Part shown: one piece after another, positions 34,397 to 54,426 of the stretch
Numbering within the stretch: the stretch's first letter is position 1
How the letters are laid out: the number at the start of each line of letters is the position of its first letter
Source of the DNA: an uncultured Planctomycetales bacterium
Lineage (GTDB): Bacteria > Omnitrophota > Gorgyraeia > Gygaellales > Profunditerraquicolaceae
Length of the DNA: 64,000 bases
Reading direction: 5' to 3'
Assembly (NCBI GenBank): GCA_964427405.1
Contig: CAYRUB010000006.1
Location: 15,558-79,557, forward strand
The notes under the pieces: model-generated
Told to the model about the DNA's origin: nothing
The model's database searches: none
The model's input: only the letters and a program-made list of their open reading frames with translations
Made by a program: the position numbers and the translations under genes

Positions 34397-34413
34397 CTCT
34401 ATAGGTAAACATT

Positions 34414-35124: not shown

Positions 35125-35187
35125 TTTTTTTTGCCTATAAATGATTATGTAAATATAATTAGATAGACAAATAAAGGGAGGAGATAT

Positions 35188-35514
35188 ATGGAAGACAGAA
35201 TTAAAATCAGCTGGTGTAGAAGACTAGAACAATGGCTTGACGGTATGCCATTTGAAGAGAAGCTAAAAACGCTAGAACATGGAAGGCTGCTAACCTGTCT
35301 ATGTTGCGGGTTTACTGTTTTTGATAAGGAGAAGCCAGAGGACAGGATACAAAGGAAATGCGTAGCAGGTAGTCGTGATCATGCGTTCATGGAAAGCGAG
35401 TATTATATTATTCTCAAGCGAGGATTCTCGGGAATAGTTGATATGGTGAATTATAATCCTCCTGAAACATCGGAAGATGCCGTAGTTCGATATTTTAAAA
35501 GCAAAAGAAAATAG
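35188..35514 (+). CDS. Hypothetical protein (108 aa; Cys-containing)
   Basis: ORF with GGGAGG RBS; no recognisable domain. Confidence 0.35.
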   Translation: MEDRIKISWCRRLEQWLDGMPFEEKLKTLEHGRLLTCLCCGFTVFDKEKPEDRIQRKCVAGSRDHAFMESEYYIILKRGFSGIVDMVNYNPPETSEDAVVRYFKSKRK

Positions 35515-35550
35515 GAAACATATCAATTAACCATGACCATGGAGGTGTTT

Positions 35551-36825
35551 ATGGACATCAGAAAGATTAAGATTGAGGCGATTAATCCGGCGCCGTATAA
35601 TCCGCGTAAAGATCTTAAACCGGGAGACCCTGAGTATGAGAGCTTGAAGAAAAGCATACTTACGCATGGTTGTGTGCAGTTGCTTGTTTGGAATATCCGC
35701 ACAGGCAATCTTGCCGGCGGGCATCAGACATTTAAGGTGCAGCTTGAGCTTGGCGTAAAGGAAGTTCAGGTGTGCGTTGTTGATTTGTCTCTTGAGCAAG
35801 AAAAGGCGCTAAATATCGCCCTCAATAAAATTCAGGGAAGTTGGGACAATGAAAAACTCGCAGCGCTTTTAGATGAATTAACGAAAATACCGAATTTTGA
35901 TACAACCGTTACGGGCTTTAATGCCGTAGAGATTGGGCAGATTTTTGACCGCTACCAAGAACCTAAGGACGTGGATGACTATGATTTTCAATCGGCCCTG
36001 GATGATATTGTAGAACCAGTGACAAAAAGAGGCCAGGTAATTACGCTCGGCGAAAGGCATAAAGTTATGTGTGGAGATGCGACGAGTAAAGAGGATCTTA
36101 ATATACTTCTCCAAGGAGAGAAAGTTGCTCTTTTGGACATTGATTGGCCCTATAACGTAAATTATATGGGAGGAAGCTGCCCGCGTTCTGATACTCGTCC
36201 TAAGGGGTCTCGTAAATGGGACGCTATTTATTCAGACAATATGCCGCAAAATGAATATGAAGCATTCATGCTGAAGGTTCTTGTTAATATAAAACCTTAC
36301 TTAAATCCCGGCGCAGCTTTCTATCAGTGGCAAGCACATCGACAGCTTGGTCCGCTTTATCAGATTCTTACTCAACTTGATTTTCATGTTTCCTGCCTTA
36401 TCTGTTGGGCTAAAGAGTCAGCTGCAATATCTTATGCGGACTATAGTTTCCAGACAGAACAGGCGGTTTATGGATTTTTGAAAGGACAAAGTCACTATTT
36501 CGCAGGGAAGCCAGGCGAGTCGAATTTGTGGCAGGTAAATCGTGATTCTACTAAACTTTATTTGCATCCATGCCAGAAGCCAGCAATTTTAGCCGAACGC
36601 GCAATCAAAAATTCATCAAGACGTAATGATATAGTTCTCGATGTTTTTTTAGGATCAGGATCTGTTTTGATTGCTGCAGAAAACCTTGACCGGCGTTGTT
36701 TTGGGATGGAGCTTGATCCGCGCTATTGTGATGCGATTGTTAGGAGATATATTGCTTTCGTAGGCGTAGATAAGGTTTCGGAAGATTTGCGTAAGAAATA
36801 TCACAAGGAGGTTTCCAATGGATGA
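35551..36825 (+). CDS. ParB-like nuclease domain fused to beta-class DNA methyltransferase (phage-type ParB-MTase)
   Basis: N-terminal ParB/Srx-like region (KIKIEAINPAPYNPRK). MTase motif IV (DWPY-like) precedes motif I (VLDVFLGSGS). Start chosen at MDIRKI after GGAGG. Confidence 0.7.
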   Translation: MDIRKIKIEAINPAPYNPRKDLKPGDPEYESLKKSILTHGCVQLLVWNIRTGNLAGGHQTFKVQLELGVKEVQVCVVDLSLEQEKALNIALNKIQGSWDNEKLAALLDELTKIPNFDTTVTGFNAVEIGQIFDRYQEPKDVDDYDFQSALDDIVEPVTKRGQVITLGERHKVMCGDATSKEDLNILLQGEKVALLDIDWPYNVNYMGGSCPRSDTRPKGSRKWDAIYSDNMPQNEYEAFMLKVLVNIKPYLNPGAAFYQWQAHRQLGPLYQILTQLDFHVSCLICWAKESAAISYADYSFQTEQAVYGFLKGQSHYFAGKPGESNLWQVNRDSTKLYLHPCQKPAILAERAIKNSSRRNDIVLDVFLGSGSVLIAAENLDRRCFGMELDPRYCDAIVRRYIAFVGVDKVSEDLRKKYHKEVSNG

Positions 36826-37498
36826 TAGTAAATCAATATATGACGATGAAGAGCCTATTCTTTCTCTTATTCAGCAAATCAAAGATGGTACCTTAAATCC
36901 TAAAACTTTACCTAGGGAAAAAAGACAGTGGTGTGTAGAGTTTCTTTCTAGCGAAGGCTATACAGAGGCGCAGATTGCACAAGTAATAATGAGAGCCGAG
37001 AAAACTGTGTATCGTGATTTGATAGAGATACAGGATCGTAATGCCATGACGCCGGATATTAATTCGGCTAAACGCATTGTAGGAAATATGTTTCAGAAGG
37101 CTATGACACATCATAAGTATCTAATGCGACTTGCGCGCAACCCAGATGCTTCTAATGGAGAAAAAACTCAATCGGAGTTTCTGGCGTGGCGCGTTTTAAA
37201 GGAGGTGGTAGAAAAAATGCAAACATTAGGGTATCTTCCCCTGAAGCCTCAGGAGATTGTAGAAGATATTTTTCATCACGTAACAAATGGGAATGGTGAG
37301 GAAGGAATTACTGAAGCTAAAAATATGATAGGTGAGATTGAGCGCGCAGCAAAAGAAGCCGGAACGCTTGATCTAGAGACCGAAGAGAAGATTAGGGCTA
37401 TAAGGACAAAGATTGAGCAAGTAGAGATTAATCAGGAAATAAATAAACTCAAGAATAAAGAAAATAAACCAAATGACACAAAAGGAGACTCAAAATGA
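36818..37498 (+). CDS. Putative terminase small subunit / DNA-binding protein
   Basis: 226 aa; HTH-like AQIAQVIMRAEKTVYRDL; position immediately upstream of and overlapping terminase large subunit. Confidence 0.35.
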   Translation: MDDSKSIYDDEEPILSLIQQIKDGTLNPKTLPREKRQWCVEFLSSEGYTEAQIAQVIMRAEKTVYRDLIEIQDRNAMTPDINSAKRIVGNMFQKAMTHHKYLMRLARNPDASNGEKTQSEFLAWRVLKEVVEKMQTLGYLPLKPQEIVEDIFHHVTNGNGEEGITEAKNMIGEIERAAKEAGTLDLETEEKIRAIRTKIEQVEINQEINKLKNKENKPNDTKGDSK

Positions 37499-39126
37499 AA
37501 AATAATATCGTAAGTGACCTATCAAGGCTAAGAAGGCAGGAAGGCAGCAAGTCGCTGCTTGCGTTCGCAAAGTTATATATGAAGCATCATTTAGAATGCG
37601 AGCTATCCCCGGCTCATCTTGAAATATACCGTATTCTTGGTACAGCAACTACCGAGAGAGGTAAAAAGATTGCCATCGCCGCACCGCGCGATTTCGGAAA
37701 AAGCACTATGGTTACCTTAATTTACATGGTTTACAGTATTTGTTATTCGAAAGAGAAATTTATTGTGATTATTTCGAATACAGCTTCACAGGCAAACCAG
37801 ATATTAGATAACATCAAAAAGGAGCTAACGGAAAATGAATTGCTAAAGCTGGACTTTCCGGAAGTATTTGAATCAAATGGTAAATTTAAATTGTTGCGCT
37901 GGAGGCAGTCAGATATAATCACCCGCAATAAGGTTTTGGTTTTAGCATTAGGTTCAGGTCAGCAGATACGCGGACGCAGATTCGGAGTCGCCCGCCCGAC
38001 TTTAGTTGTGGCTGATGATTTGGAGGATTCCGAGAATACCTTTGGAAAAGAATCGCGAGATAAGATGCAAGACTGGTATGAAAAGTCGGTTTTAAAGGTA
38101 GGTTCGGAGGATACCAATTATATTTTCATTGGTAACCTTTATCATCCCTATAGTTTACTAAGCGAGTATGTTTGTCCGGATAAGTATCCAACGTGGATTA
38201 AGAGGGTGTATTCCGCCATTGTAGTTTGGCCTAGACGTATGGATCTTTGGGAGGATAAATGGGCTAACATATACAACCATAAGATAGAATTCAATGGGGC
38301 GAGCGGCCCTGTGGTAGCTTATCAATATTATCAAGAGAATCAAATAGCGATGGACGAAGGAACTGAGCTTCTCTGGAATGCGCGATACAGCTTGCACAAG
38401 CTAATGGGAATACGGCAAGAAAATGAGCTTAGTTTTCTCTCTGAATTTCAAAATACGCCAGTTAATCTCAGGGATTGCCTTCTTGACATAGACAATATCG
38501 TATACTGGGATACATCCGAGCGATCCGTTGATGACCTGCTAAAGTCATTAGGTGATAACGTAAGGTTTTATGGCGCATGCGATCCGAGCCTTGGGTTAAG
38601 CACGGTTAAGGGGGATTTTTCGGCTATTATCGTATTGGCAAAAGACGAAGCCTCTAAGACGCTATATATCATAGTAGCCGACATAGAGCGCCGGCCAATT
38701 GAAAAAATAGTTGATGATATTTTAGCTTATTCCCTGAGGTATAAATTTATTAAGTTTGGAATAGAGGGTAATCATTTCCAGCGAGTTCTTGTTGATTTAG
38801 TTAAGGAAAAGGGGGAGAAGGCAGGACTTTATATCCAGCTTGAGACAGTGATCAATAAGGATGACAAGATTGCGAGGATTCAGTCTTTGCGGACGTGTTT
38901 AAAAAGTGGGAACTTACAATTTAGCAAGAAACATAGACAACTTCTGGAGGAGTGCAGATATTTTCCGAAAGGCAAGCACGATGACGGATTGGATGCTTTA
39001 GAGATGGTAGTGAATCTATCTAATGATAATGGGTTTTCGTTCTGGTTTGCCGGCAGCACAAGGCCAAAGCCTTTCAGTGATGACGAAATAGGTCCCTATG
39101 GATACCGCGGATGGGGAAGAAGGTGA
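37495..39126 (+). CDS. Phage terminase large subunit
   Basis: ATPase P-loop IAIAAPRDFGKST, Walker B LVVADDLEDSEN, C-terminal RNase-H-like nuclease (YGACDPSLG...IIVLA...DDGLDALEM). Confidence 0.8.
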   Translation: MKNNIVSDLSRLRRQEGSKSLLAFAKLYMKHHLECELSPAHLEIYRILGTATTERGKKIAIAAPRDFGKSTMVTLIYMVYSICYSKEKFIVIISNTASQANQILDNIKKELTENELLKLDFPEVFESNGKFKLLRWRQSDIITRNKVLVLALGSGQQIRGRRFGVARPTLVVADDLEDSENTFGKESRDKMQDWYEKSVLKVGSEDTNYIFIGNLYHPYSLLSEYVCPDKYPTWIKRVYSAIVVWPRRMDLWEDKWANIYNHKIEFNGASGPVVAYQYYQENQIAMDEGTELLWNARYSLHKLMGIRQENELSFLSEFQNTPVNLRDCLLDIDNIVYWDTSERSVDDLLKSLGDNVRFYGACDPSLGLSTVKGDFSAIIVLAKDEASKTLYIIVADIERRPIEKIVDDILAYSLRYKFIKFGIEGNHFQRVLVDLVKEKGEKAGLYIQLETVINKDDKIARIQSLRTCLKSGNLQFSKKHRQLLEECRYFPKGKHDDGLDALEMVVNLSNDNGFSFWFAGSTRPKPFSDDEIGPYGYRGWGRR

Positions 39127-39325
39127 CATCTGCTTTTACGTAATTAATTTCTAAGATCTAGCAATTTAGAAATATTATTATTGAACGCCTTACTGAGTCT
39201 TCCCAAGTGTCAATTTTGAAGGCAGGAGATTAGGATAGGGTAATGTTAAGACAAGAAACGCCACGATTAATAATCGTGGCGTTTCTGTTTAATAAATGGC
39301 TTTGTTAATTTAGATAAGAATAAAT

Positions 39326-39613
39326 TTATTTGAAATCCAGTAATTTCGAGAGTGGGATATTAAACGCTTTCGCAAGCTTTTGAAGGGTATCTATCTTTGC
39401 GGCAGAAGGGTGTTTACTTTCTAGTAATTGGATGTGCTTGTAATCAATATTAGAAAGCTCCGAAAGCTTCTGTTGTGTATATTTATATTTCTTTCTAAGT
39501 TGCTTCAATCTAGTTGCTAATTTAAGTCTTACTTCATTCTCCATAATTAGAATTATCTCATATCTTTGTTCCCCTTTACACCGTGTGCATACGGTGATAT
39601 AATTAATTTTCAC
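39326..39613 (-). CDS. XRE-family HTH transcriptional regulator (likely true start at internal MENEVRL, ~39541)
   Basis: LKQLRKKYKYTQQKLSELSNIDYKHIQLLE HTH_3 motif. Confidence 0.65.
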   Translation of the reverse strand: MKINYITVCTRCKGEQRYEIILIMENEVRLKLATRLKQLRKKYKYTQQKLSELSNIDYKHIQLLESKHPSAAKIDTLQKLAKAFNIPLSKLLDFK

Positions 39614-39675
39614 TTGCTATTTAACATGATTTATGGCAATGATTACCATGAGAGGAACTTATACCGGAGGTGACC

Positions 39676-40725
39676 ATGGATACAGAAAAGCGCAATGTGT
39701 GGCAAGTTGGTACTGGTAGTCAGGAGCGTTCCTACGGAAATATTTTCTTAAAATATGACGTAATGGCTGTAGGGCCGGGAGATGATGGTTTTTATAACGA
39801 GAAATTATATTCTCCTTACGGTGATATTAAAAACAGTATTAGGCGTTTTTATCAAAATGCCAAGAAAGGCGATTTAGTAGTTTTACGGTTAGGCACTGGC
39901 CAGGTGCTTGCGCTTGGCGAAATAGCGGATGACGGCCCTGTTATAAATGAGGAATTCGCTGACATTGACGACTATCACTTGCAGCATGTCCGCAGAGTAA
40001 GATGGTTCCCCAATACGGCGAAGGGTTTTCCCGTAAGAACGCTTGGTGGGCAGGTAAGAACTTTTGCAGGAGTTAACGCTTCCAGTGTACTTCGTTGGAT
40101 CGGAAGGGTGAGAGTTTCTTCTAAAGTGTTGCATAGGAAATTAAAGCATCTTCCTAAGCCATCAGTTAGTCTCTCGTCTCAGGAGTTAAAAAGAGGACTT
40201 GTTGCTTCTGGATTGTCTATGGAGCGAACTAATAAGGTTGTTAATAGACTTAATTCCTTGCGAATGATAGCGCAATGGTATAAAGATGAAGAAAAGAGAC
40301 TTGGAAAACGGCCATCTGAGCATGAAACGGTTGCTTACATGGTTATTCCATTCCTTCAATCGTTAGGCTGGATGCGCGAGAATACTGCTATTGAATGGAA
40401 TGGGGTTGACGTTGCCCTGTTTGATCGACTGCCGTCTAAAGATACATTTCTTCGCTGTGTAGTGGAGGCGAAAGCTTTTGGGAGTTCAGTCTTTAAGCCA
40501 TTTGAACAGGCTGCTGATTATGCGCGAGTAAAAGGGCGGGATCATTGTAAGAAATTAATTGTTACAGATGGAATACGCTACACATATTTTAAAAAGCAAG
40601 GTGGTGAGTTTAGTCCACAATCGAGGCCGCAAGCGTATTTGAATATCATGCGCATGAGAAAGAACTATCCTCTATATGACTGTGATGGAGCTGTGGAAGC
40701 GATTAAGGGGATGGTAATGGCATAA
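39676..40725 (+). CDS. Hypothetical protein with putative PD-(D/E)xK nuclease motif
   Basis: GVDVALFD ... CVVEAKAF (D ... ExK) in the C-terminal half. GGAGG RBS before ATG at 39676. Confidence 0.35.
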   Translation: MDTEKRNVWQVGTGSQERSYGNIFLKYDVMAVGPGDDGFYNEKLYSPYGDIKNSIRRFYQNAKKGDLVVLRLGTGQVLALGEIADDGPVINEEFADIDDYHLQHVRRVRWFPNTAKGFPVRTLGGQVRTFAGVNASSVLRWIGRVRVSSKVLHRKLKHLPKPSVSLSSQELKRGLVASGLSMERTNKVVNRLNSLRMIAQWYKDEEKRLGKRPSEHETVAYMVIPFLQSLGWMRENTAIEWNGVDVALFDRLPSKDTFLRCVVEAKAFGSSVFKPFEQAADYARVKGRDHCKKLIVTDGIRYTYFKKQGGEFSPQSRPQAYLNIMRMRKNYPLYDCDGAVEAIKGMVMA

Positions 40726-40983
40726 GTGGTATAGAATACTGTTAAAATAGGAAGCGCCGCGGCTTATAACCGTGGCGCTTTTGTTTAGAGGTTGTTTTCA
40801 GAGAGTCTTTCTGACGTTCCGTATTTCTGGTCACCTTAAGGGAATTACCTCTTGTGACATGTCTTGGGAGCGTTTGTTTGGCGAATACGTAAAAATACCC
40901 ACGGATTATAGGCAAGATTTCAAGCGTAAACCGTCCTTTTTATCCCTTAAGTTTTTATTTACGTGGTATAATATGAAACAAAA

Positions 40984-43900
40984 ATGGCTATCAAATCCTG
41001 CTTTATAGGTATCGATAAATATTTAGATCCTGGTATCCGAGACTTAACGGGAGCAGTTAAGGATGCAACTGTTTTATGGTCCTTATTTTCTGATACTGTC
41101 CCTTCCATACAGGCAGACATTCTCTGCAATGAACACGCCACCTTTGATCATGTGAAAAACAGTCTTTCTTCTCTTCTTGAGTCTGCTACCCAAGAAGATA
41201 CAATTATCATTTCATTTTCCGGACATGGCACAAATCACCATCGTCTCGTAACCCATAATACGTCCAAGGCAGCTCTGGATGATACCACGGTATCAATGGA
41301 TGAGCTGGCTGGTCTCTTCAGAAAATCTAAGGCCAACGCAATTCTTTTTATCCTAGATTGCTGTTTTAGCGGAGCTGTCCCCGCAAGAGTCATTGAAGAC
41401 AGCCCTGTCCCCCGGCAAGATACTTTTTCTTTTGAAAGCTTTGCCGGTAAAGGAAGAATATTAATTGCGGCATCAAGCGCCAATGAGCCAGCCTTCGAGT
41501 TACCTGGGTGCGGTCATGGGCTTTTAACAAAGGCCTTAATTGATGCATTACAAACTACAGATGATCAGGTTAACTTAGCATCGGCAATGGACAAAATTAC
41601 TCAGATGGTGAGAGCTGAGGCTGCACGCATTGGCGTAACACAAACGCCTGTTTGGTTTGGTTTCATAGAGGGAGGTTTAACTTTCCCCTCTCTTAGGCCA
41701 GGAGCTAATTTTTATAAGGCATTTCCGGAGAGCAAAGGAATTAGGATTAGTAAAGCGATCGCAGACCTGCAGGCATTTGGGATTTCCGCACCTATTCTTA
41801 TAGAATGGGCTAGGAATTTTAAAAACGGATTGAACAATCTACAACTAGAAGCAGTCAATAAGCACAGGATATTAGATGGTCAATCTTTGCTTGTGGTGGC
41901 ACCTACAAGTTCCGGTAAAACATTTATTGGAGAAATGGCCGCAGCAAAGGCAATATCTAAAGGTGAAAAGGTAATCTTTCTTTTGCCTTACCGCGCACTA
42001 GTAAATGAGAAATATGATTCTTTTGTTCAGTTATATACTGACAATTTAGGGATTCGTGTACTTCGATGCACAGGAGATTATTCTGATGAAACTGGTCCAT
42101 TTGTCCGTGGTAAATATGAAATCGCTATATTGACATTTGAAATGTTTCTCAATTTAGTCTTAGGGAATCCAACGTTATTAAGTCAGATTGGATTAATCGT
42201 GCTTGATGAAGCTCAATTCATTACGGATCCGACAAGAGGGATAACAGTTGAGTTATTGCTTACCTTTCTTTTAGCGAATGCTGAGAAAGGTATTAGACCT
42301 CAAATAATTGCCCTCTCAGCTGTCATTGGCGGTATAAACGATTTTGATCAATGGCTCGGAGTTGAGGCTATGATTTCGTATGAGCGTCCGGTACCCCTGG
42401 AAGAGGGCGTTATGGACCGTAGCGGTAATTTTCAATTTTTAACTCCTATTGCAGAAACTAAAATAACTTCATTAATTTCTTCATATAATATTGTGCAGCG
42501 GGGAAAGAATCCAAGTCAACAAGATATGATTGTTCCATTGATGCAATTCTTAATGAAAGATCTTAAAGAGAAAGTTATTATTTTTAGGAATACTCGCGGA
42601 CCCGCTGAAGGATGCGCTGGATATCTTAGTCGTGAATTAGGATTGCTCCCGGCAAATGATGTAATAGCACAATTGCCGAATCATGATCTTTCAACCACAT
42701 CTATGCATTTACGGGAATGTTTGTCCGGAGGCGTTGCTTTTCATAATACAAACCTTAACAGAATTGAAAAAGCGATTATAGAGCGTTCGTTTCGAGACCC
42801 CGCCGGTAAGATCAGGGTATTAGTGGCCACTACAACGCTGGCCGCTGGAATAAATACGCCGGCATCAACTGTTGTTTTGGCTGAACAGGAGTTTATCGGT
42901 GAAGATAACCGGCCATTTTCCATTGCAGAGTATAAAAACATGGCTGGTAGAGCTGGCAGGTTAGGTTTTAATGAGGATGGCAAGGCAATTATATTGGCTG
43001 AACAAATGCATGAAACACAGGTTCTTTTTAAGCGATACGTACTTGGAAAACCGGAGGCATTAAGTTCTTCGTTCGATTCTGAGAATGTTGAGACTTGGAT
43101 CATTCGGTTGTTGGCTCAAATTAAAGAGGTTCCCCGACATGATATTGTGCGATTACTGGCAAATACATACGGAGGATATTTAGCGAATCGCCAGAATCCG
43201 GGATGGCGAGAAAGTATAAAACAACATCTAGAGGAATTAATGGTAAAAATGTTATCGCTAGGTCTCTTGGAGCAAGAAGGAGATCTTGTACGGCTTACCT
43301 TACTGGGTCGGGTGTGTGGTCAATCTTCGTTATCGCTTCAATCTGCCATGCGACTTGTTGAATTATTAAAGTCCTTAGGGATGATCCAGGTTAGTTCTGA
43401 GTTTCTTATGGCGATTGTCCAAGGGTTACCCGAATCAGATAATACGTATACACCACTTTTCAAAAGAGGAAGCAAGGAAAGCGGAATGCCTCGGGTAGCA
43501 TCTGCCCGGGTTGGTAATGTTGTTGTTAATTTATTACAGAAGTTTGCCGGGGGAGAGATGTTTACATATTATGCCCGATGTAAAAGAGTAGCCATTTTAT
43601 TTGACTGGATTAATGGTGTGCCTACAGAAAGAATTGAGGCTGAATACACGATGAACCCTTACCAAGGTAAAGTAGGATATGGGGATATTCGGCGTTTTGC
43701 GGATGCCACTAGGTATCATCTTAGAACAGTCGCACCTATTGCTAGTCTTATTTTAGTTGATCGTTGCCCGACCGGTGAGTCAATAGATATTTTGCTAAAA
43801 CAATTAGAAGTTGGTGTGCCGAGAGACTCTCTTGATCTACTTAAACTACCAATCGGCTTTGAAAGAGGTGAATATTTGGCACTCTACGGAAAAGGTATCA

Positions 43901-44010
43901 AGACCTATGAAGCTTTCTGGGCTGTACCGGGAGAGAATCTTATTAGAATCCTTGGCTCAGATCGCGCTGCGGAAATTGAAAAGGCTCGAAGTAAATTAGT
44001 TGTTAAATAA
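40984..44010 (+). CDS. Caspase-like (peptidase C14) domain fused to SF2 (Ski2/Hel308-like) helicase with C-terminal winged-helix region
   Basis: Caspase His-Gly (ISFSGHG) and Cys (ILDCCFSGA) dyads. Helicase motifs I APTSSGKT, II VLDEAQF, III LSAV, VI MAGRAGRLG. 1008 aa. Confidence 0.7.
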   Translation: MAIKSCFIGIDKYLDPGIRDLTGAVKDATVLWSLFSDTVPSIQADILCNEHATFDHVKNSLSSLLESATQEDTIIISFSGHGTNHHRLVTHNTSKAALDDTTVSMDELAGLFRKSKANAILFILDCCFSGAVPARVIEDSPVPRQDTFSFESFAGKGRILIAASSANEPAFELPGCGHGLLTKALIDALQTTDDQVNLASAMDKITQMVRAEAARIGVTQTPVWFGFIEGGLTFPSLRPGANFYKAFPESKGIRISKAIADLQAFGISAPILIEWARNFKNGLNNLQLEAVNKHRILDGQSLLVVAPTSSGKTFIGEMAAAKAISKGEKVIFLLPYRALVNEKYDSFVQLYTDNLGIRVLRCTGDYSDETGPFVRGKYEIAILTFEMFLNLVLGNPTLLSQIGLIVLDEAQFITDPTRGITVELLLTFLLANAEKGIRPQIIALSAVIGGINDFDQWLGVEAMISYERPVPLEEGVMDRSGNFQFLTPIAETKITSLISSYNIVQRGKNPSQQDMIVPLMQFLMKDLKEKVIIFRNTRGPAEGCAGYLSRELGLLPANDVIAQLPNHDLSTTSMHLRECLSGGVAFHNTNLNRIEKAIIERSFRDPAGKIRVLVATTTLAAGINTPASTVVLAEQEFIGEDNRPFSIAEYKNMAGRAGRLGFNEDGKAIILAEQMHETQVLFKRYVLGKPEALSSSFDSENVETWIIRLLAQIKEVPRHDIVRLLANTYGGYLANRQNPGWRESIKQHLEELMVKMLSLGLLEQEGDLVRLTLLGRVCGQSSLSLQSAMRLVELLKSLGMIQVSSEFLMAIVQGLPESDNTYTPLFKRGSKESGMPRVASARVGNVVVNLLQKFAGGEMFTYYARCKRVAILFDWINGVPTERIEAEYTMNPYQGKVGYGDIRRFADATRYHLRTVAPIASLILVDRCPTGESIDILLKQLEVGVPRDSLDLLKLPIGFERGEYLALYGKGIKTYEAFWAVPGENLIRILGSDRAAEIEKARSKLVVK

Positions 44011-46518: not shown

Positions 46519-47334
46519 ATGTTTAGTGAAACGTTTAAAGCCCTAAACAATGAGGCACAGTTCACCAGAGAAATACTTGGCTCAGGCGCTTCACAGATTA
46601 GAAACGCTACCTACGCAACTAAGGGCATTTACTTCCAGGCATTTATAAGTCTCTCTACTGGATTTGAAAGGATCGGAAAACTTTGTTTAATGCTTGATCA
46701 TTTTATTGATCATGATGGTGAGTTTCCTGATTACAACTATATGAAGAATGAAATTAGGCACAATATATGTGTTATCTATGAAAAATCACAATCGGTGATT
46801 ACAAAACGTTCAATATCCATGAAGTTTCTGAACAACCTAAATGATCCCATTCATCAATCAATACTGAGAATTATCTCCGAGTTCGCTCAAGGAGATCGTT
46901 ATTCTAACATTGATTTGATTGTGGGGAGGCAACATGAGAGAGATCCTATCGCGTTATGGTTTATGGAAGTAGATAAGCCATTATATGAGACTCGCGTATC
47001 AAAGAAGAAAAAGGAATCTATCAATAGTAACGCCGCTGGCATTGCTTCAATACTTGACCTCTACGTCATGGTTAGGCATACATCTGAGACTGGTAGCGAA
47101 ATCACGGACGTAGAAGATGCAAGCCGCAGAACTGGAATGCAAAAAGCTGTTGTTTCGTATCGCCAGCTATATGTGCTTCAAATCATTAGGTATTGGGTTG
47201 AACTATTATCTTCTCTACAAGACATAGCAATGCAGACTGAGAGCGAAGATATTCCTTTCTTCAATGAAGTATTCGCGCCTTTTTATAACGACGACTCTTA
47301 TATTAGAACGCGAAAAACTTGGGATACTTTTTAA
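46519..47334 (+). CDS. Hypothetical protein (271 aa)
   Basis: Clean ORF; no recognisable domain. Confidence 0.3.
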   Translation: MFSETFKALNNEAQFTREILGSGASQIRNATYATKGIYFQAFISLSTGFERIGKLCLMLDHFIDHDGEFPDYNYMKNEIRHNICVIYEKSQSVITKRSISMKFLNNLNDPIHQSILRIISEFAQGDRYSNIDLIVGRQHERDPIALWFMEVDKPLYETRVSKKKKESINSNAAGIASILDLYVMVRHTSETGSEITDVEDASRRTGMQKAVVSYRQLYVLQIIRYWVELLSSLQDIAMQTESEDIPFFNEVFAPFYNDDSYIRTRKTWDTF

Positions 47335-47788
47335 GCCATATTGTTTTAGATATTTTAGTTCAAGTTTAATTTCTGTTTCTTGAAATATCTGTTTTTGTAC
47401 TCTGAAGCGGAGAAATTTTCCCGCACCAAATTTTGCCGGAGCGAGCGTAGCTGTAGGGTGGCGTGTTCGCACCACGCCCGCCACCATGTTTTTGTTTTGA
47501 ACCACAGACTGCAAGAGGCGGGGCATCCCGCGACCCTGGGTTTCTTTGATTTTGGAAGCAGGAACGGACAACCCTGAACCTTCAATTTATATCCTACCTG
47601 CATACAGAGAGTTTTTCTGTCGCGACGTATTTCTGGTCCGCCAAGATGACTCAGAAAATGATTTACAATGGGGAAGAGGAGGTATAGAATAAACTCATCA
47701 TAAAGAGGTGGTAAATGAGGTTCAAATAGCAAAATTTTAAGGCAACTCCTAAAAATAAGGGGTTGCCTGTTTATTTTAAGGAGGCGTT

Positions 47789-48049
47789 ATGGCTAGAAAA
47801 TTAGTTGAATACGGAGTGTTTCTAAATATACACCCAAGTGGTTACGATAAAAGAGTAATGATTCATAAGCTACCTTGTGCGCATTATAAGCAGCATCTTA
47901 AGAAAGGAAGAGCGACCGGGATGTACACTTTTCATAAAGACTGTTTAACCTTTGATGAGGTAATTAAGCGAACTTCGGAATGGGCCTTAGATTGGCATGC
48001 TCAGATTAAGATTTGCAAAAGTTGTCGGGGAAATTGGAAACTTATTTAA
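47789..48049 (+). CDS. Hypothetical small Cys/His-containing protein (86 aa)
   Basis: ORF preceded by AAGGAGG RBS; CxxH...CKSC residues. Confidence 0.3.
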   Translation: MARKLVEYGVFLNIHPSGYDKRVMIHKLPCAHYKQHLKKGRATGMYTFHKDCLTFDEVIKRTSEWALDWHAQIKICKSCRGNWKLI

Positions 48050-48130
48050 TTCCAATGAAGAATGAAAATGGAGCTGCCTCTAATTTTTGAAAAATAGAAA
48101 GTTTGAATTTCGTTAAGGAGTGATTACTAA

Positions 48131-49825
48131 ATGATTAAGTGGATAAGAAAGATTATAGGTAATAAGAGACAAGAAAAACAATACAGTATATCGAAGGAAA
48201 AAATTGAGTATAGACTACAGAAAGAAGACACCAAGCATTACAAATGCTTTGTGTTAATGCCTATTGGTAAAGAGGGTACTGTAGAATACTCAAATAATAT
48301 GCTGGTATTCCATGAGATAATCAAACCCTGTGTAGTTAATAGTGGCTATGCTATTGACTGTTATTATTTAGATTTAGTCTCAGAATCTGGAGATATAGCT
48401 AAACAGGGGATACTAGCTTTAAAAGATGATACTATTGTAATAGCAGATTTAAGGCGTAGAAATCCAGCAGTAAGCTATGAATTAGGCATAAGACATACGC
48501 TTGGCAAGAGATCCATATTGGTTTGCTCAAGTCAATCCGATCATTTTTTCTATACTATCAGACATCGGGCTATTAAGTATAAAATAGATGGAACTTCTAA
48601 TCAGGAATTTTATGATAAATTATCATCTTGTATTGAGGACATATTAATTAATCCAGAAAAATCAGACAACCCTGTAAGCGATATTTTAGGGGGTATTAAT
48701 AGCATTGCTGGAGTGCAGTTATTAGAAAGGGAGGAATCCGGAGAAACAAAAGTGGTTACTTCTGATAAAGAAAAAGATTTCCACCGGTTAGTAGCGGCTG
48801 GAATACAATATGAAAATGTTAATAGACACGATTTAGCTATTGGTTGTTTTGAGGATGCTTTAAAAATAAAACCCGATGATATAGGTCTTCATATTCAGTT
48901 GAGTATTATATACGGTGAGAAGGTCGGAGATAGAAGTAGTAAAGAAAAAGCAATAGAGCATTGTAAGGACGTATTAAGGATTGATAAAAACAATATTTCA
49001 GCAAAGTTTAATTTAGCTATATATACGAATCATTTAAAGGGTTCGAAAGAAAGCTTGCCAATTTATTTAGAAGTTGAGTCTTTAATTAGAATGCAAGGGT
49101 TATTGGGTTCGGAAATAGATGGAAAGTCAAATCTTTTCATAGGACATGATTATAAGAATGCGGGAGACAAGCCAGAGGCTGAAAAACGTTATGAAAAGGC
49201 GATAGCCATATTAAAGAAACTAGTCGATCAAGGAGATAAGGGAAGCGCTTTTTGGTTAACTGATGCAAAAAAGAATTTAAGAAGTATTTTTAAAATAACT
49301 TCTATTTTGAGTGACGAAGAAACAATATTTGTTAATTCAAGTACAGTCATTTTACTTCCGACAAATATTAAATCAGTTGAAGCTTCGATTCATCCTCTAT
49401 GGAAGCAATTTGATCAGAGGCAGCCGGAATTAGAAGGCGCAAAGTGGATTGCAGATCGCCCGACAATAACTAATGAGGAAGCTTTAAAGGGGGGAATATA
49501 TACATTTACTAGAGAATTTGATTTTAACTCTGAAATTGCGCAATTGCGTTCAGCAGAGATATGTTTACTTGTTGACGATTTTTGTGAATTAATAGTAAAT
49601 AGCACACGATTGGGGAGAGTTCATGGATATGAGGAATTACATAGATTCGTTATTACGCAATACATCAAAAAAGGCAAAAATATCGTTCAGTTTATAGTAG
49701 AGAATATTGCAGCTGAAGAATTTAATGATCCCCATAAGAACCCAGAGTTTTATAAATCCACTGAGAAATATCTTTTTAATCCATATGGTTTGAAATATTC
49801 AATTATTTTAGAGTATAGATGTTAA
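48131..49825 (+). CDS. Nucleoside 2-deoxyribosyltransferase-like (TIR/SLOG-related) domain + TPR repeats + C-terminal domain
   Basis: N-terminal CFVLMPIG...NPAVSYELGIRHTLGKRSILV resembles the Nuc_deoxyrib_tr catalytic-Glu region. Central TPR-like repeats (LAIGCFEDALKIKPDD...). Confidence 0.4.
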   Translation: MIKWIRKIIGNKRQEKQYSISKEKIEYRLQKEDTKHYKCFVLMPIGKEGTVEYSNNMLVFHEIIKPCVVNSGYAIDCYYLDLVSESGDIAKQGILALKDDTIVIADLRRRNPAVSYELGIRHTLGKRSILVCSSQSDHFFYTIRHRAIKYKIDGTSNQEFYDKLSSCIEDILINPEKSDNPVSDILGGINSIAGVQLLEREESGETKVVTSDKEKDFHRLVAAGIQYENVNRHDLAIGCFEDALKIKPDDIGLHIQLSIIYGEKVGDRSSKEKAIEHCKDVLRIDKNNISAKFNLAIYTNHLKGSKESLPIYLEVESLIRMQGLLGSEIDGKSNLFIGHDYKNAGDKPEAEKRYEKAIAILKKLVDQGDKGSAFWLTDAKKNLRSIFKITSILSDEETIFVNSSTVILLPTNIKSVEASIHPLWKQFDQRQPELEGAKWIADRPTITNEEALKGGIYTFTREFDFNSEIAQLRSAEICLLVDDFCELIVNSTRLGRVHGYEELHRFVITQYIKKGKNIVQFIVENIAAEEFNDPHKNPEFYKSTEKYLFNPYGLKYSIILEYRC

Positions 49826-50245
49826 GGAGATATTCAAAAATAATCTTTTTCTCTTTCTCTAAAATCGTGGGACTTTTTTGAAAAAGACACAGCTTGGCGA
49901 GACGTGGATAAAGCAGGTTACTTCTTTTAAAAAATAGAAACACCCGTAATTTATAGTCAAACGAATGAATTAAGATTAAAATGGGATATGCAACTCCCTG
50001 GACTCCCAGTTTATCGGGGGAGCGAGGTGCTGTCGGAGCTCGACGTATCTGCGCCGAGCTCCTACTCAGGGTAACAGGCGACAGTGCCCAAACAGGTTCA
50101 CATATACAGTATACAACAATGCTAGAGGGATTCTTTGTTTCAATCATAGTACAGATATTGGATTATATCAATTCTACAGAATATTTTAACTCTTTTGCGT
50201 TAGAATAAATAAGAGCATGCTAATTCATAAGCTAATGAGGGAGCT

Positions 50246-51328
50246 ATGTCAACAGCCATAATATTAGGAGCTGGTTTTTCTAGATGTGCAGGTTTACCAA
50301 TACAGAGTGAATTCTCTAAATTCCTTTTATCTCCAGAACTTTCCCGAACAATTTTAGAGAAAACAATTACAGAGGTTATTAGTGCGTTTATTAGTGATGT
50401 TTTTGGATGGAGACGTGGCAAGCCATTTCCAAGCATGGAAGACTATTTCACTTGTTTAGATTTATCGGCTAACACCGGTCACCACTTAGGAATTCAGTAT
50501 ACTCCTAAAAAATTAAGAGCTATTAGAAGAATGACGATTTATAGAATTTTTCAAATATTGGATTATAACTATCGAAATTCTTCAGAAATAGCGCATTTTT
50601 TAAAGATGGTTTTTAATAAAGGGACTCCAGGGTTTATTGTGCTTAATTGGGATATTGTTTTGGAAAAAGCAATCCATCTTCAACCATTAAGAAATAAAAT
50701 TAACTATGGTTTTGAGTGTTATGAATGGGATACAAAACGTAGGAAAAACTTTGAAGATGACGATATTTTTGTATCAAAGATAAATGGATCTAGCAATTGG
50801 GTGTATTGTGAAAACTGCACAAGCATATTTTATGATCTTAGTACAAAAATCGCTCTTCATAAAATGATGGGTCTTATAAAAGCAGATTTTAGATTATTTA
50901 GAGAAGGATTTACCGATAGACATTTCGATGAAGCGCTGGGGACTTCTCCTCAAAGCCGAAAATGTCATTTTTGCAACAATATGTTAGCAACGCATATTGC
51001 TACCTTTAGTTTTAGAAAATCGTATAGGACATTTGCCTATCCTGCTATTTGGCATAATGCTCAAAGCATATTGTCTAAAAGCAATGAATGGATCTTTGTT
51101 GGTTATTCACTACCAGATGCTGATTTTGAATTTAAACATATATTAAAAGTTTCCGAATTAGCGTTACGGAAAAAAAAGAATCAGCCCCCTCTTAAGATTA
51201 ATGTAGTGGTAAAAAATGATAATGCTGCAAAAAATAGATACCAATCATTTTTTGGTAACCGAATAACCAAAATATGGCAGGGCGGTCTTCAGGAGTTTGT
51301 AAAGAAAAATACAATGAGCAGGAAATAA
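50246..51328 (+). CDS. SIR2-like protein with Zn-ribbon insert, paralog C
   Basis: IILGAGFSRCAGLP N-terminus, NGSSNWVYCENC...CHFC zinc-ribbon, FVGYSLPDADFE C-terminal motif. Same length (360 aa) as paralog B. Confidence 0.6.
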   Translation: MSTAIILGAGFSRCAGLPIQSEFSKFLLSPELSRTILEKTITEVISAFISDVFGWRRGKPFPSMEDYFTCLDLSANTGHHLGIQYTPKKLRAIRRMTIYRIFQILDYNYRNSSEIAHFLKMVFNKGTPGFIVLNWDIVLEKAIHLQPLRNKINYGFECYEWDTKRRKNFEDDDIFVSKINGSSNWVYCENCTSIFYDLSTKIALHKMMGLIKADFRLFREGFTDRHFDEALGTSPQSRKCHFCNNMLATHIATFSFRKSYRTFAYPAIWHNAQSILSKSNEWIFVGYSLPDADFEFKHILKVSELALRKKKNQPPLKINVVVKNDNAAKNRYQSFFGNRITKIWQGGLQEFVKKNTMSRK

Positions 51329-51480
51329 ATACCCTTCCCGTAACATTATTTACCCTGTATACAGAGAGTCTTTCTGCCGCGCCGTATTTCTGGGCGTCCT
51401 TACCGGGGATACCTCTCAAATTTGCCCATAGCTGTTTACAGAGGGGGCTTCCCCTTGTCCAATATTACTGCCCGGCTTAA

Positions 51481-51625
51481 GAAGGAATGCCTAGTGGCAT
51501 AGAAACGCGTTGACAAATCAAATAGTTATGATAAATTAACGTCGTAAGTAGATTAAATCGTCCCGAGTTGTGAAGGGGTAAATCCCGGACGTTAAAAAAA
51601 TAAAACCTTCGTTGGGCTTAATACT
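51481..51625 (+). repeat. Copy 1 of a ~145-bp duplicated promoter/leader module (IR ATGCC-N4-GGCAT, TTGACA-16-TAAATT, terminator-like leader)
   Basis: Near-identical to 52988-53132. Contains an operator-like inverted repeat, a promoter and a GC stem plus T-run just before the gene start. Confidence 0.6.
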
Positions 51626-51654
51626 CGGCGGAGGTTTTTATCTTTTCTAAACAA

Positions 51655-52878
51655 ATGAATATCGGCAATAAATATGAAGATAAATTGGCCGCGTTAGTTG
51701 CTGACCCCTTGCTCATTGATTATGTGCATTTGAGGCCGAAATATAAAAAAGCACTTATTTTGCGCGAATTATGTGATGTTCTTATAGAGTATCAGCCATT
51801 GGCGATCCCTATTCAATTGAAAGTGCAAGGCGTATTAAGGAAAAATTCGGATGATTGGCTAAAAAAAGAGACTGCTAACGCTACAAAACAAATTTTGGGG
51901 GCATTAAGAAGCTTAAATCTTAATCGTGTTGTTATTGAAAATCCTAGGACCGGTATAATTGAATTTCCCCCTAAAACATTAAAGGCAAAACATGGAATAA
52001 TTATTTTGGATTATAAGGGAGATCCTAGTGTTTTGTCGGCAGCTTGTCTTCGTAGAACAAAAGATAAAATACTGCTGCATTATCTAACGTTAGATGATTT
52101 TTCAATACTCTGCCAACATTTAATGACACTACCCGATTTAATGGATTATTTGGATAAAAGGGGAGAGATTCCAGAATGGGCCTTGCCACGTTTGAACGAT
52201 GAGCGCAATGTCTATGCTTACTACCTCACCCATGATAATTATTTCGGTCCTACGGTAAAAATAAACGATTTTGTTGGCGAGTGGGATAGGTTAACTCAAA
52301 AACATGCTAAAGAATATAAAGAAAAGCTTGAGGAGGATAACCAGGCAGAATTATTTAATTTACTTCTCAAACAAATCCACAAAGAAGATCCCGATCAATC
52401 TACTTATTCACCAGATTTTATTCAAAGAGATTCTGAAAGAGAACGTATTTTGAGAAAAGAAGTTACTAGAAAGCTTAGTAGCATAAGACGTCTTTATCGA
52501 AGAGAAATATCAAAGACATTGATAGAAAAATGTCAGAAAGCAAGCACAAGCGAGAAAGGGTTTAACTATTTTTGTTTTATGCCAGAGGGAGATAATACCG
52601 CATATGTCTTTTTGTCTTCTAGACACCCAAGAAAAGAACGCATTACTCAACTTTGTGCAATAGTAAATTGCGTGCTTAATATTCAAGATGTGGATTATGT
52701 CTTGGGTGTAGCTACAGAGAATTTAGGAGTAAAAGGCAGATCAACTGACTTTATAATGATTGACAAAACCATGAAGGATTGCGATCCAAAGGCGATTGAA
52801 GAAAGTAAGCGAATATTTAAAAATATGGAATATCGGCATATATATGATTTTCCTGCAAACAAACAAATTATTATCTAG
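51655..52878 (+). CDS. Hypothetical protein (407 aa)
   Basis: Clean ORF directly downstream of the duplicated leader; no recognisable domain. Confidence 0.35.
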   Translation: MNIGNKYEDKLAALVADPLLIDYVHLRPKYKKALILRELCDVLIEYQPLAIPIQLKVQGVLRKNSDDWLKKETANATKQILGALRSLNLNRVVIENPRTGIIEFPPKTLKAKHGIIILDYKGDPSVLSAACLRRTKDKILLHYLTLDDFSILCQHLMTLPDLMDYLDKRGEIPEWALPRLNDERNVYAYYLTHDNYFGPTVKINDFVGEWDRLTQKHAKEYKEKLEEDNQAELFNLLLKQIHKEDPDQSTYSPDFIQRDSERERILRKEVTRKLSSIRRLYRREISKTLIEKCQKASTSEKGFNYFCFMPEGDNTAYVFLSSRHPRKERITQLCAIVNCVLNIQDVDYVLGVATENLGVKGRSTDFIMIDKTMKDCDPKAIEESKRIFKNMEYRHIYDFPANKQIII

Positions 52879-52987
52879 CATAGGGTTTTAGAAGAAGTGC
52901 CCATCTTTTATGATAAACAAACGAATAGCAAAAGGATTGACCTACGGCATTCCCATAGGGACGCAGTAATATCATTCTTGGGATTGA

Positions 52988-53132
52988 GAAGGAATGCCTA
53001 GTGGCATAGAAACGCGTTGACAAATCAAATAGTTATGATAAATTAACGTCGTAAGTAGATTAAATCGTCCCGAGTTGTGAAGGGGTAAATCCCGGACGTT
53101 AAAAAAGTAAAACCTTCGTTGGCCGTAATGTG
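52988..53132 (+). repeat. Copy 2 of the ~145-bp duplicated promoter/leader module
   Basis: 120 nt essentially identical to 51481-51600, then related terminator-like GC stem + T-run. Confidence 0.6.
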
Positions 53133-53181
53133 GCCGGCGGGGGTTTTTGTTTTTAAGTTGTTTATATAATTTATAAAGAAT

Positions 53182-54426
53182 ATGTCAGATTACAGAAGAA
53201 ATCACTATGTTCCTGATAGATTTCAGCGTCGTTTTTTGCTAAATGACGGGAAAGAGAAGAAGTTTTTCTACCTGGATCTATCTCCTGAAACTGCCTACTC
53301 AAATAAAAGACAGTATGTTCGTAAGTTTTTACATCGATGGGGTCCTCCTAGTTGTTTCTGCGAAGACGATTTGTATACGACTAAGTTTGGCGACTGGGAG
53401 TCAACTGAGATAGAAGAAAGGTTTTTTGGAAAGGTTGATTCTTACGCTCCTTCGGCCATTGAATATTTCGCAAATTTCCAGCATCCTAGTGTTGATGGCA
53501 AGGCGTTTAATAATTTAGTTTCATATATGAGTATACAAAAGTTACGTACGCCTAAGGGGTTAGCTTATTTATCTGAAATATTGCCTAGGTTAGATAAAAA
53601 TCTCATATTGCTTAAGATGCAAGAATTAAGAAATATTTTTTGTGCTTTGTGGACAGAAAGCATATGGAGTATTGTTGATGCTACTAAGGCAGATACAAAG
53701 TTTATTCTTTCTGACCAACCTGTAACGGTATATAACAAGACTTGTTTACCCAATTCGAAGTGGTGTCTTGGTCACCGGGACCCTGACATAGCTCTTTCCG
53801 GTACGCATACATTATTTCCACTAAGCTTAGATAAAGCCCTTATACTTACAAACTTATCTTGGGTACGTAATCCATATGGTCACCCAAGGAAGCCCAGACC
53901 GAATTTTGATCCTTTTAGAGATACAATTTTTAACTTTCTTCACATACAAACAGGTCGATTCCTCACTGATGTAGAGGTAAATGAAATTAATTATGTGATA
54001 AAAACGAGGGCTTACAGGTATATTGCAGCCGCTAAAAAAGAGTGGCTTTATCCAGAGAATAAAATTCCCTCTCAACGTTGGGAAGAGTTAGGGCAGGGAT
54101 ATTTGTTTATGCCAGATCCTCGTTCCGTTACTTTCTCATCAAAAATATTAATCGGTTATGATAATAAAAAAGCAGATGCTTTTGATGAATACGGGAGAAA
54201 ACCCTGGCATCCAGATTATGATAATAAGCCTGAGCGTGATAAAGAATGGGACACATTTCATGCTTTTCAGGGTGAATTTGCACGGGTTTTCGGTCCAAAA
54301 AGGCGCGGTAGGTCTTTTGAGCTAGGAGAATTAAGTAAAGAGGAAGATTCTCCAGATTATCATGCATATCATCTGGGGCTCGAAAAGCATTATAAGCAAA
54401 AGATTACCGGAGAATCCGGTTCTTAA
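53182..54426 (+). CDS. DUF4238-like protein
   Basis: N-terminal RRNHYVPDRFQRRF matches the HYVPQFYLRxF signature of DUF4238. 414 aa. Confidence 0.4.
   Translation: MSDYRRNHYVPDRFQRRFLLNDGKEKKFFYLDLSPETAYSNKRQYVRKFLHRWGPPSCFCEDDLYTTKFGDWESTEIEERFFGKVDSYAPSAIEYFANFQHPSVDGKAFNNLVSYMSIQKLRTPKGLAYLSEILPRLDKNLILLKMQELRNIFCALWTESIWSIVDATKADTKFILSDQPVTVYNKTCLPNSKWCLGHRDPDIALSGTHTLFPLSLDKALILTNLSWVRNPYGHPRKPRPNFDPFRDTIFNFLHIQTGRFLTDVEVNEINYVIKTRAYRYIAAAKKEWLYPENKIPSQRWEELGQGYLFMPDPRSVTFSSKILIGYDNKKADAFDEYGRKPWHPDYDNKPERDKEWDTFHAFQGEFARVFGPKRRGRSFELGELSKEEDSPDYHAYHLGLEKHYKQKITGESGS

Follow-up and report, generated by a model that had tools for sequence, protein, structure and literature searches.

A candidate autonomous sensor-effector with an NDT/TIR-like head, TPR repeats and a galactose-binding-like jelly roll, encoded beside a solitary sirtuin-like gene in a bacterial defence island

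The two adjacent genes described here lie in a 64,000-nucleotide stretch of DNA (the window, meaning the whole of the DNA that was analysed, to which all positions refer) from an uncultured Planctomycetales bacterium that GTDB places in the Omnitrophota (GenBank assembly GCA_964427405.1, contig CAYRUB010000006.1, positions 15,558 to 79,557 of the forward strand). The first gene encodes a 564-amino-acid (aa) protein whose N-terminal domain resembles nucleoside 2-deoxyribosyltransferases (NDT) and TIR domains, and the second encodes a 360-aa SIR2-like protein; a short 86-aa gene precedes both. These three open reading frames (ORFs), which an earlier note made from the sequence alone had pointed out, are all present on the + strand. 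The genes and the domains of their products are as follows.

47789-48049, + strand: 86-aa gene (from the ORF list).
48131-49825, + strand: 564-aa gene, candidate immune sensor-effector (from the ORF list).
48236-48700, + strand: predicted N-terminal NDT/DRHyd-like (TIR-related) flavodoxin-fold domain, residues ~36-190 of the 564-aa protein.
48728-49285, + strand: TPR region, residues ~200-385 (Pfam TPR models and TPR proteins of the PDB).
49298-49825, + strand: galactose-binding-like β jelly roll, putative ligand or trigger sensor, residues ~390-564.
50246-51328, + strand: 360-aa SIR2-like gene (from the ORF list), encoding a solitary SIR2_2-type sirtuin-like protein with GAGFS and NWD motifs, a predicted Cys4 zinc ribbon (C188, C191, C240 and C243) and N180.

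The 86-aa and 564-aa genes are separated by 81 bp and the 564-aa and SIR2-like genes by 420 bp, with good Shine-Dalgarno sequences ahead of both the 564-aa and the 360-aa genes. The GC content around the 564-aa and SIR2-like genes is 33-37%, compared with 40-45% elsewhere. Both are real coding genes, and both belong to a large defence island. The interpretation that we favour, at rather better than an even chance, is that the 564-aa protein is a stand-alone, single-polypeptide sensor-effector and that its neighbour is an independent, solitary zinc-ribbon sirtuin of the SIR2_2 type.

The N-terminal domain of the 564-aa protein is predicted to be NDT/TIR-like and a sister of the TIR domains. A single-sequence phmmer search of the protein against the PDB returned TPR proteins only, and profiles were required. 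With a profile built from an alignment of 14 N-domain homologues (A1), chains of DNPH1, Rcl and NDT were the top 11 and 12 of the 15 PDB matches. The alignment with DNPH1 spans D..VvA.....YELG ('...DiViaDlrr.npnviYELGiRHa' against '...DVVVAEVTQPSLGVGYELGRAVA') and places the predicted catalytic residue Glu117 (E117, codon 48479-48481), which sits in the invariant motif ELGxRH, on the Glu of GYELG. The PDB entries of the D80A and D80N mutants set the offset of the DNPH1 numbering, by which E117 aligns with E104 of DNPH1, the catalytic nucleophile of that enzyme. E117 is invariant across the 14 homologues and at least 90% conserved over 124 diverse representatives of the wider family. The commonest Pfam matches on the 14 close homologues are weak: Nuc_deoxyrib_tr (PF05014) in four, all at E values of at least 2.4e-3, CAP12/Pycsar-TIR in three, where the CAP12-PCTIR_TIR matches are all below threshold (best 3.3e-3, cut-off 24.7 bits), and MAP3K_TRAF_bd in two. 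No Pfam match to TIR, TIR_2, ThsB_TIR or DUF4062 was found on the query, the 14 homologues or the 124 representatives.

An AlphaFold2 (AF2) model of the domain (predicted local distance difference test, pLDDT, 72.7; predicted template-modelling score, pTM, 0.73) shows a three-layer α/β arrangement with a β-α-β flavodoxin-like sandwich, and its best Foldseek match is TIR-STING (E = 0.018). The fold fits without discriminating, and the NDT/TIR assignment rests on the fold and the motif alignment together. The earlier note had seen in the N-terminus, where its motifs CFVLMPIG and NPAVSYELGIRHTLGKRSILV are indeed present, a resemblance to the catalytic-Glu region of the Nuc_deoxyrib_tr fold. This resemblance is borne out by the profile alignment of E117 with the DNPH1 Glu and by the weak Pfam matches, and the modelled fold is compatible with it.

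Behind this domain, the TPR repeats described in the earlier note are confirmed by Pfam above threshold: residues 222-250 match TPR_2 (5e-8; 32.8 bits, cut-off 27) and TPR_1 (2e-7; 31.0 bits, cut-off 27.8), and weaker TPR matches continue to about residue 370. The C-terminal part gives a β-sandwich fold match to a galactose-binding-domain-like jelly roll of the GH2_N or CBM-like kind. Neither a signal peptide nor a catalytic glycosidase domain was detected in the protein, and neither PADLOC nor NCBIfam has a match for it, for the 86-aa protein or for the product of a 407-aa gene downstream of the SIR2-like gene. All three domains are under purifying selection, with ratios of nonsynonymous to synonymous substitution (dN/dS) of 0.06-0.19, and the 564-aa gene as listed gives 0.12-0.17.

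Ahead of the N-terminal domain stands a leader (residues 1-35, 48131-48235) with the motif EKxYNI..E.F. It is conserved within the clade of 43-91% identity, even where the N-terminal domain is internal to a protein, is modelled with a pLDDT of 71-86 and no regular secondary structure, and evolves faster than the remainder of the 564-aa protein (dN/dS 0.2-1.6).

Among 5.8 billion proteins, full-length homologues of the 564-aa protein form eight clusters (59-91% identity). A further 13 proteins match residues ~12-190 only (43-67% identity) and carry this part between unrelated N- and C-terminal regions, while the TPR block alone is common to two further proteins with other N-termini, P0022 and P0012, the latter having it behind a Schlafen/AlbA_2 domain. 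Judged from this distribution, the N-terminal domain is a mobile, shuffled module.

The earlier note had also likened the pairing of the two genes to Thoeris-like signalling. In a two-gene system of that kind, the 564-aa protein would sense infection and, by making or processing a nucleotide signal, switch on the SIR2-like NADase encoded next to it. The adjacency of the genes on the same strand, the TIR/NDT-like character of the N-terminal domain beside a protein with a SIR2 fold, a 40-nt direct repeat around both genes, and the occurrence of distant N-domain relatives beside TIR and SLATT signalling components would all be compatible with such a system. The comparison of loci, however, speaks against it. 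DNA homology to the loci of a 91%-identical relative (L002-L004) is confined to 47771-49889 of the window (91.6% identity), which extends from the ribosome-binding site of the 86-aa gene to about 65 bp past the stop codon of the 564-aa gene; downstream of the 564-like gene these loci, which form a restriction-modification (RM) island downstream of RecQ/HigB, carry a 138-aa gene and a PD-(D/E)XK gene. Other full-length homologues follow RecG (P0008, among mostly housekeeping genes that include fatty-acid synthesis genes), a KAP NTPase, or AlwI/DpnI RM genes, AIPR and a 148-aa gene, and two more lie on short contigs with unrelated neighbours. When all seven contexts were compared with one another, the 564-aa gene was the sole constant, the 86-aa gene being present in two and methyltransferases in three. 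The window alone has a SIR2 neighbour, and none of the six other contexts of the full-length family has one.

The SIR2-like family gives the same result from the other side. Its loci were compared in 25 genomes, drawn from one archaeon and from widely differing bacterial phyla. Within 6 kb, none of them encodes a homologue of the 564-, 86- or 407-aa protein, no neighbour of any kind is conserved, and the neighbourhoods are heterogeneous and mostly housekeeping. Furthermore, none of 151 neighbours of 57 distant N-domain relatives gave a SIR2-like match. The SIR2-like protein itself is a single domain with a zinc ribbon and has no SLOG, Macro, CARF-type or other sensor domain to receive a signal, its catalytic His is replaced by Asn, and the intergenic gap of 420 bp adds to these objections. 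The proposed pairing is not borne out and the genes are not co-conserved, which leaves a Thoeris-like system here highly improbable. The 564-aa and SIR2-like genes are best explained as functionally independent genes that stand side by side in a defence island, and no Thoeris-like two-gene system is supported. The 407-aa gene was also considered as a partner of the SIR2-like gene and was rejected, as it has no homologue in the 25 loci.

The segment shared with L002-L004 comprises exactly the 86-aa and 564-aa genes at a spacing of 81-82 bp, as would be expected of a two-gene cassette in which an 86-aa zinc-binding protein and the 564-aa protein act together, for example as regulator or antitoxin and toxin. 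The 86-aa protein, the small Cys/His protein noted earlier at 47789, is rich in these residues (invariant H15, H26, C30, H36, H49, H70, C76 and C79) and is probably zinc-binding, and a 94% identical copy is encoded upstream of the 564-like protein of L002-L004 (P0001). The gene is nevertheless absent upstream of five other full-length homologues (P0002, P0003, P0004, P0005 and P0008), and no 564-like gene accompanies the homologues of the 86-aa protein; these form 10 clusters, and their settings include an MvaI/BcnI RM system and, in a Candidatus Omnitrophota chromosome, the vicinity of an integrase. A cassette of this kind is thus distinctly unlikely. As an obligatory partner of the 564-aa protein the 86-aa protein was rejected, being co-transferred in the closest relative only.

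The direct repeat mentioned above has two copies.

47597-47636, + strand: 40-nt direct repeat, left copy, 90% identical to the right copy.
51354-51393, + strand: 40-nt direct repeat, right copy, 26 bp past the stop codon of the SIR2-like gene.

No other copy occurs in the window, where 0.01 would be expected by chance, and the repeat is absent from all other fetched loci except a contig of the same organism (L008). The three genes that it encloses may have been mobilised together locally. The repeat may be a local insertion or recombination scar, and it provides no evidence of functional coupling.

On its own, the 360-aa protein matches SIR2_2 (PF13289) below the cut-off (E = 2.5e-3; 18.4 bits, cut-off 24.5 bits), its best PADLOC match is Aga_SIR2 (2e-6), and a single-sequence phmmer search against the PDB returned no match, so that a profile was required. 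The SIR2-like identity, weak on the query alone, is judged solid through its relatives. A paralog within the window (33221-34303; 25% identity, E = 2e-21) matches SIR2_2 above the cut-off (6.5e-8, 33.2 bits), several homologues carry precomputed PF13289 matches, and the family profile finds SIR2 proteins only in the PDB (ThsA, 0.011; the 'SIR2-like domain-containing protein' 8w9l, 0.019), with the alignments on N-x-D and K-x-H-G. The paralog and the family profile together confirm the SIR2 fold that the earlier note had assigned to this gene, and its description as a third SIR2-like paralog is reasonable in view of the SIR2_2 gene at 33221 and a DUF4917/AbiH-like gene at 32174.

With more than 765 homologues, the family of the 360-aa protein is large, and its members are uniformly 350-390 aa long. 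Gly8, Gly10, Ser12 and Asn134 are invariant in all of 39 sequences, and Ala9 and Asp136 are conserved in 38 of these; Lys178, Gly181, Ser182, Cys188, Cys191, Cys240 and Cys243 are likewise invariant. The pattern is that of a SIR2 Rossmann core into which a zinc ribbon has been inserted. The position of the catalytic His in K-x-H-G-S is occupied by Asn in the 360-aa protein (KINGSS, N180, codon 50783-50785, versus K[ML]HGSS). Of the 120 best-ranking homologue clusters out of 765, 103 keep His, and Asn is found in 16, namely the window protein and 15 others. Since the other motifs and the Cys4 ribbon are intact in the Asn clusters, the substitution looks like a functional variant that has been conserved, and not like decay.

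The N-terminal domain of the 564-aa protein belongs to a much larger family. An exhaustive hidden Markov model search with the domain retrieved 23,220 clusters (50% identity) at E <= 1e-3 and 12,376 at E <= 1e-10, in which it usually lies at the very start of a protein of 170-700 aa. Over the 124 representatives, R121 never varies, and conservation reaches at least 90% for the motifs F..MP.G, V.ADL and N.NV.(Y)EL and for H122. Nuc_deoxyrib_tr matches 10 of these distant representatives (best 4.2e-8), and their C-termini include Lcl_C (seven), TPR-S (four), MAP3K_TRAF_bd (four), FGE-sulfatase (two) and assorted TPRs. P0023, which is 32% identical to the query over residues 39-148, has the N-terminal domain followed by TPR. 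Plasmid-borne relatives that PGAP labels 'TRAFs-binding domain-containing protein' align with query residues 39-375 at 25-27% identity and adjoin TIR and DUF4231 genes. Another N-domain relative is located inside an integrase element.

Two of the plasmid neighbourhoods, from a Klebsiella plasmid (L042, NZ_CP142977.1) and an Agrobacterium plasmid (L043, NZ_CP045855.1), each combine the 'TRAFs-binding' relative with one or two TIR genes and a DUF4231 gene of the SLATT type with two transmembrane segments; the clusters look conserved, and one is beside an ISCR1/sul1/qnrB6 resistance region. They represent a candidate multi-gene system, on which no experimental study was found. In a third locus (L005, 693-7317), the N-domain relative P0009 lies directly 3' of a CBASS-like operon consisting of a 370-aa gene, a Prok-E2/ThiF/JAB fusion, a patatin gene and a 65-aa gene.

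A set of 142 proteins encoded no more than two genes away from 55 distant metagenome relatives was collected, and the Pfam families that recur in it are TIR_2 (nine), ThsB_TIR (eight), patatin (five), TIR (five), DUF4231 (four) and SLATT_1 (three); SIR2 is not among these recurrent families. Such neighbours, like the TIR and DUF4231 genes beside the plasmid relatives, could be accounted for if the N-terminal domain were a non-enzymatic, SLOG-like sensor of a nucleotide ligand, serving as receptor or adaptor for a TIR-made signal from elsewhere, or if it generated a signal for an effector in trans. The TIR-DRHyd-SLOG clade does contain non-catalytic sensors (PMC9503650). The seven contexts of the sub-family to which the 564-aa protein belongs, however, are all without an adjacent TIR, SLATT or patatin gene. 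The near-universal Glu at the position of the DNPH1 nucleophile and the invariant Arg look catalytic, and a protein of this kind would have three binding modules and no output domain. A sensing or signal-generating role of this kind is unlikely.

How the 564-aa protein might act as an autonomous sensor-effector can be inferred from its domains and from better characterized proteins. Its NDT/DRHyd-like head, with a conserved Glu-Arg-His site (E117, R121 and H122), would destroy NAD+ or another nucleotide through an N-glycosidase activity. Until they bind a phage-derived protein or glycan, the TPR region and the galactose-binding-like jelly roll would hold this enzyme off; the effector would then be switched on, probably by oligomerisation, and the infection would abort. 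The identity of the effector is supported by the alignment of E117 with the DNPH1 Glu, by its conservation of at least 90% and by the invariance of R121 over the 124 representatives, as well as by the Nuc_deoxyrib_tr and CAP12-TIR matches in Pfam, and that of the sensor by relatives with lectin-like or repeat C-termini (Lcl_C in seven, FGE-sulfatase in two and TPR-S in four of the 124). The shuffling of the N-terminal domain, and its presence beside a CBASS-like operon or in an integrase element, support a role in defence, as do the defence or mobile settings of the 564-aa gene, namely the RM island of L002-L004, the KAP NTPase locus, the locus with AlwI/DpnI RM genes and AIPR and, in the window, the island with the caspase-helicase, the PD-T4-6 kinase, AbiU2 and DUF4238. 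Published work offers several parallels: DRHyd domains have been catalogued both as N-terminal effectors in fusions with lectin-fold sensors (PMC8195603) and as NADases (PMC9503650), the NDT-like effector of retron-Ec86 depletes NAD+ (PMC13276650), defence systems with TIR and TPR are present in E. coli (PMC11350192), and the DUF4062 system 'Swarozyc' is a single-protein TIR/NDT-like NADase whose auxiliary domain binds the phage portal (bioRxiv 10.64898/2026.05.01.722283).

Several observations weigh against an autonomous sensor-effector. Pfam gives no match on the N-terminal domain of the query at E <= 0.1, the best E value of the A1 profile against the PDB (6e-3) makes the link to NDT/TIR marginal, and the profile position aligned with the deoxyribose-binding Asp of DNPH1 (D80) is hydrophobic (Val or Ile), the Asp not being conserved. 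REC and further flavodoxin-like domains are not distinguished from TIR/NDT by the fold search. Sensors that evolve fast often show a raised dN/dS, but when the domains were tested one by one none was elevated. The 40-nt repeat, which brackets exactly the 86-aa, 564-aa and SIR2-like genes, is the sole local hint that they are linked, and the TIR, SLATT and patatin neighbours in the wider family would also fit a role in multi-gene signalling. Finally, the context of P0008 is mostly housekeeping.

The RecG and fatty-acid synthesis genes that flank P0008 would suit a housekeeping or envelope protein, engaged in nucleotide salvage or carbohydrate binding, that stands in the island fortuitously; salvage enzymes do occur in the NDT family, and the jelly roll resembles the sugar-binding domains of glycosidases. 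Such a role is very unlikely for a protein that is extremely rare and patchy (eight full-length clusters among the 5.8 billion proteins) and has a new neighbourhood each time, mostly of defence or RM genes. The exchange of its N-terminal domain between architectures and the lack of a detectable signal peptide or glycosidase domain also argue against it.

The island that holds both genes starts after a tRNA cluster (Pro, Arg and His), and ordinary genes (histidine kinase, response regulator and TrkH) appear again from about 56.2 kb. Two further genes of the island are listed here.

25118-26728, - strand: large serine recombinase at the island start, just after tRNA-His.
51655-52878: 407-aa gene with no Pfam, NCBIfam or PADLOC match.

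The gene content of the island includes HerA-NurA, methyltransferases, the DUF4917/AbiH-like gene, the SIR2_2 gene, a caspase-HamB-like helicase, a PD-T4-6-type kinase, an AbiU2 HEPN protein and a DUF4238 protein. In the part from 25118 to 44010 there are two N6/N4 methyltransferases, one with ParB_N, and a 1008-aa caspase-DEAD helicase fusion related to HamB; the DUF4917/AbiH-like and SIR2_2 genes adjoin each other at 32174-34303. Rfam identified no RNA family near the genes, either at gathering scores over the whole window or at E <= 1 on 47200-53300, and the GC-rich intergenic segments 47395-47580 and 49975-50110 fold no better than shuffled sequences (z-scores of +0.53 and -1.40). A scan for promoters and terminators was at background level and is therefore uninformative as to operon structure.

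None of the fetched loci encodes a homologue of the 407-aa protein, which is an orphan candidate defence gene product. Its gene is flanked by the copies of a 162-nt direct repeat of 93% identity, one at 51461-51622 upstream of the gene and the other at 52968-53129 upstream of the DUF4238 gene. Each copy contains a promoter-like TTGACA-16-TAAATT, and a GC-rich, terminator-like hairpin with a T-run (51602-51638 and 53109-53147) begins in the last ~20 nt of the repeat and runs just past its 3' end. The repeat may serve both genes as a leader, an attenuator or a small RNA; it has no Rfam match, and its fold z-score is only -1.76.

Compared with the NDT/DRHyd enzymes (DNPH1/Rcl, the nucleoside 2-deoxyribosyltransferases and MilB) and the retron-Ec86 (Eco1) effector, the 564-aa query has no PF05014 match and no equivalent of D80. 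Relative to the enzymes it adds a near-universal Arg-His after the Glu and a fusion to TPR and a jelly roll, and unlike retron-Ec86 its locus has no retron reverse transcriptase or noncoding RNA. The 'TRAFs-binding' proteins (MAP3K_TRAF_bd/DUF4071 with TPR-S) belong to the same family of at least 23,000 clusters and have a homologous N-terminal domain followed by TPR. The TPRs of the query, however, match TPR_1 and TPR_2 and not TPR-S, the query has in addition the C-terminal jelly roll and the N-terminal leader of ~35 residues, and its gene is solitary, whereas those of the 'TRAFs-binding' proteins sit beside TIR and DUF4231/SLATT genes.

The TIR-TPR proteins ('TIR-II', E. coli), BcTir/Tpr and Swarozyc (DUF4062/NIR) likewise have a TIR/NDT-like head with a conserved Glu and a repeat or auxiliary sensor, encoded by a single gene of a defence island. 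For TIR-TPR and Swarozyc, it has been shown experimentally that binding of the trigger leads to NAD+ depletion and abortive infection (PMC11350192; bioRxiv 10.64898/2026.05.01.722283). The N-terminal domain of the query differs in matching neither the canonical TIR Pfam models nor DUF4062, and a jelly-roll C-terminus is not described for those systems. Thoeris (ThsB TIR with ThsA SIR2-SLOG) resembles the locus in that a TIR-related protein stands beside a SIR2-fold protein, the SIR2 domain of ThsA being the best PDB match of the family profile of the latter (0.011). It differs in that the SIR2-like protein of the window lacks a SLOG, Macro or transmembrane sensor and has Asn for His, and in that the genes are not co-conserved; with respect to ThsB, there is no TIR-family Pfam match on the 564-aa protein or its neighbours. 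The defence sirtuins (DSR1/DSR2, SIR2-HerA and the SIR2 of SPARSA) and short SIR2_2 proteins such as FAM118 have in common with the 360-aa protein the SIR2_2 Rossmann core, GAGxS, N-x-D and, in most members of its family, K-x-H-G-S. In contrast to the defence sirtuins, the 360-aa protein is short, has no sensor domain or partner, and carries a Cys4 ribbon like classical sirtuins. The 564-aa protein belongs to no named defence system and fits best among the TIR/NDT-like effectors with a sensor, as an architecture new to that class. The SIR2-like gene encodes an otherwise ordinary, little-studied solitary sirtuin whose active site has an unusual substitution.

A Thoeris-like pair of NDT/TIR and SIR2 proteins, if true, would have been a new signalling system. 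What remains is a rare architecture, with an NDT/TIR-like head, TPR and a sugar-binding-like jelly roll, in a huge family that has TIR, SLATT and patatin neighbours, together with a His-to-Asn sub-clade of a solitary zinc-ribbon sirtuin that poses a small, separate puzzle on SIR2 catalysis. The N-domain family, with at least 23,000 clusters, was found characterised by comparative genomics only and is labelled in databases 'TRAFs-binding domain-containing protein/DUF4071'; no experimental work was found in the literature on DUF4071, on 'TRAFs-binding' with phage, or on DUF4231 with TIR and phage. Tentatively, and with appreciable doubt, the domain may define a very large TIR/NDT branch of NAD+ or nucleotide N-glycosidases that act as autonomous abortive-infection effectors, gated here by TPR and a lectin-like jelly roll with a glycan or protein of the phage as ligand, or else as parts of signalling systems with TIR, SLATT and patatin. 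If this were true, the 564-aa protein would merit a name of its own as an anti-phage system, in parallel with the DUF4062 'Swarozyc'. The DUF4062 NADases are a close analogue, for which recent experiments tie bacterial immunity to human TEP1, and a sister family of such size is therefore a reasonable target for similar study.

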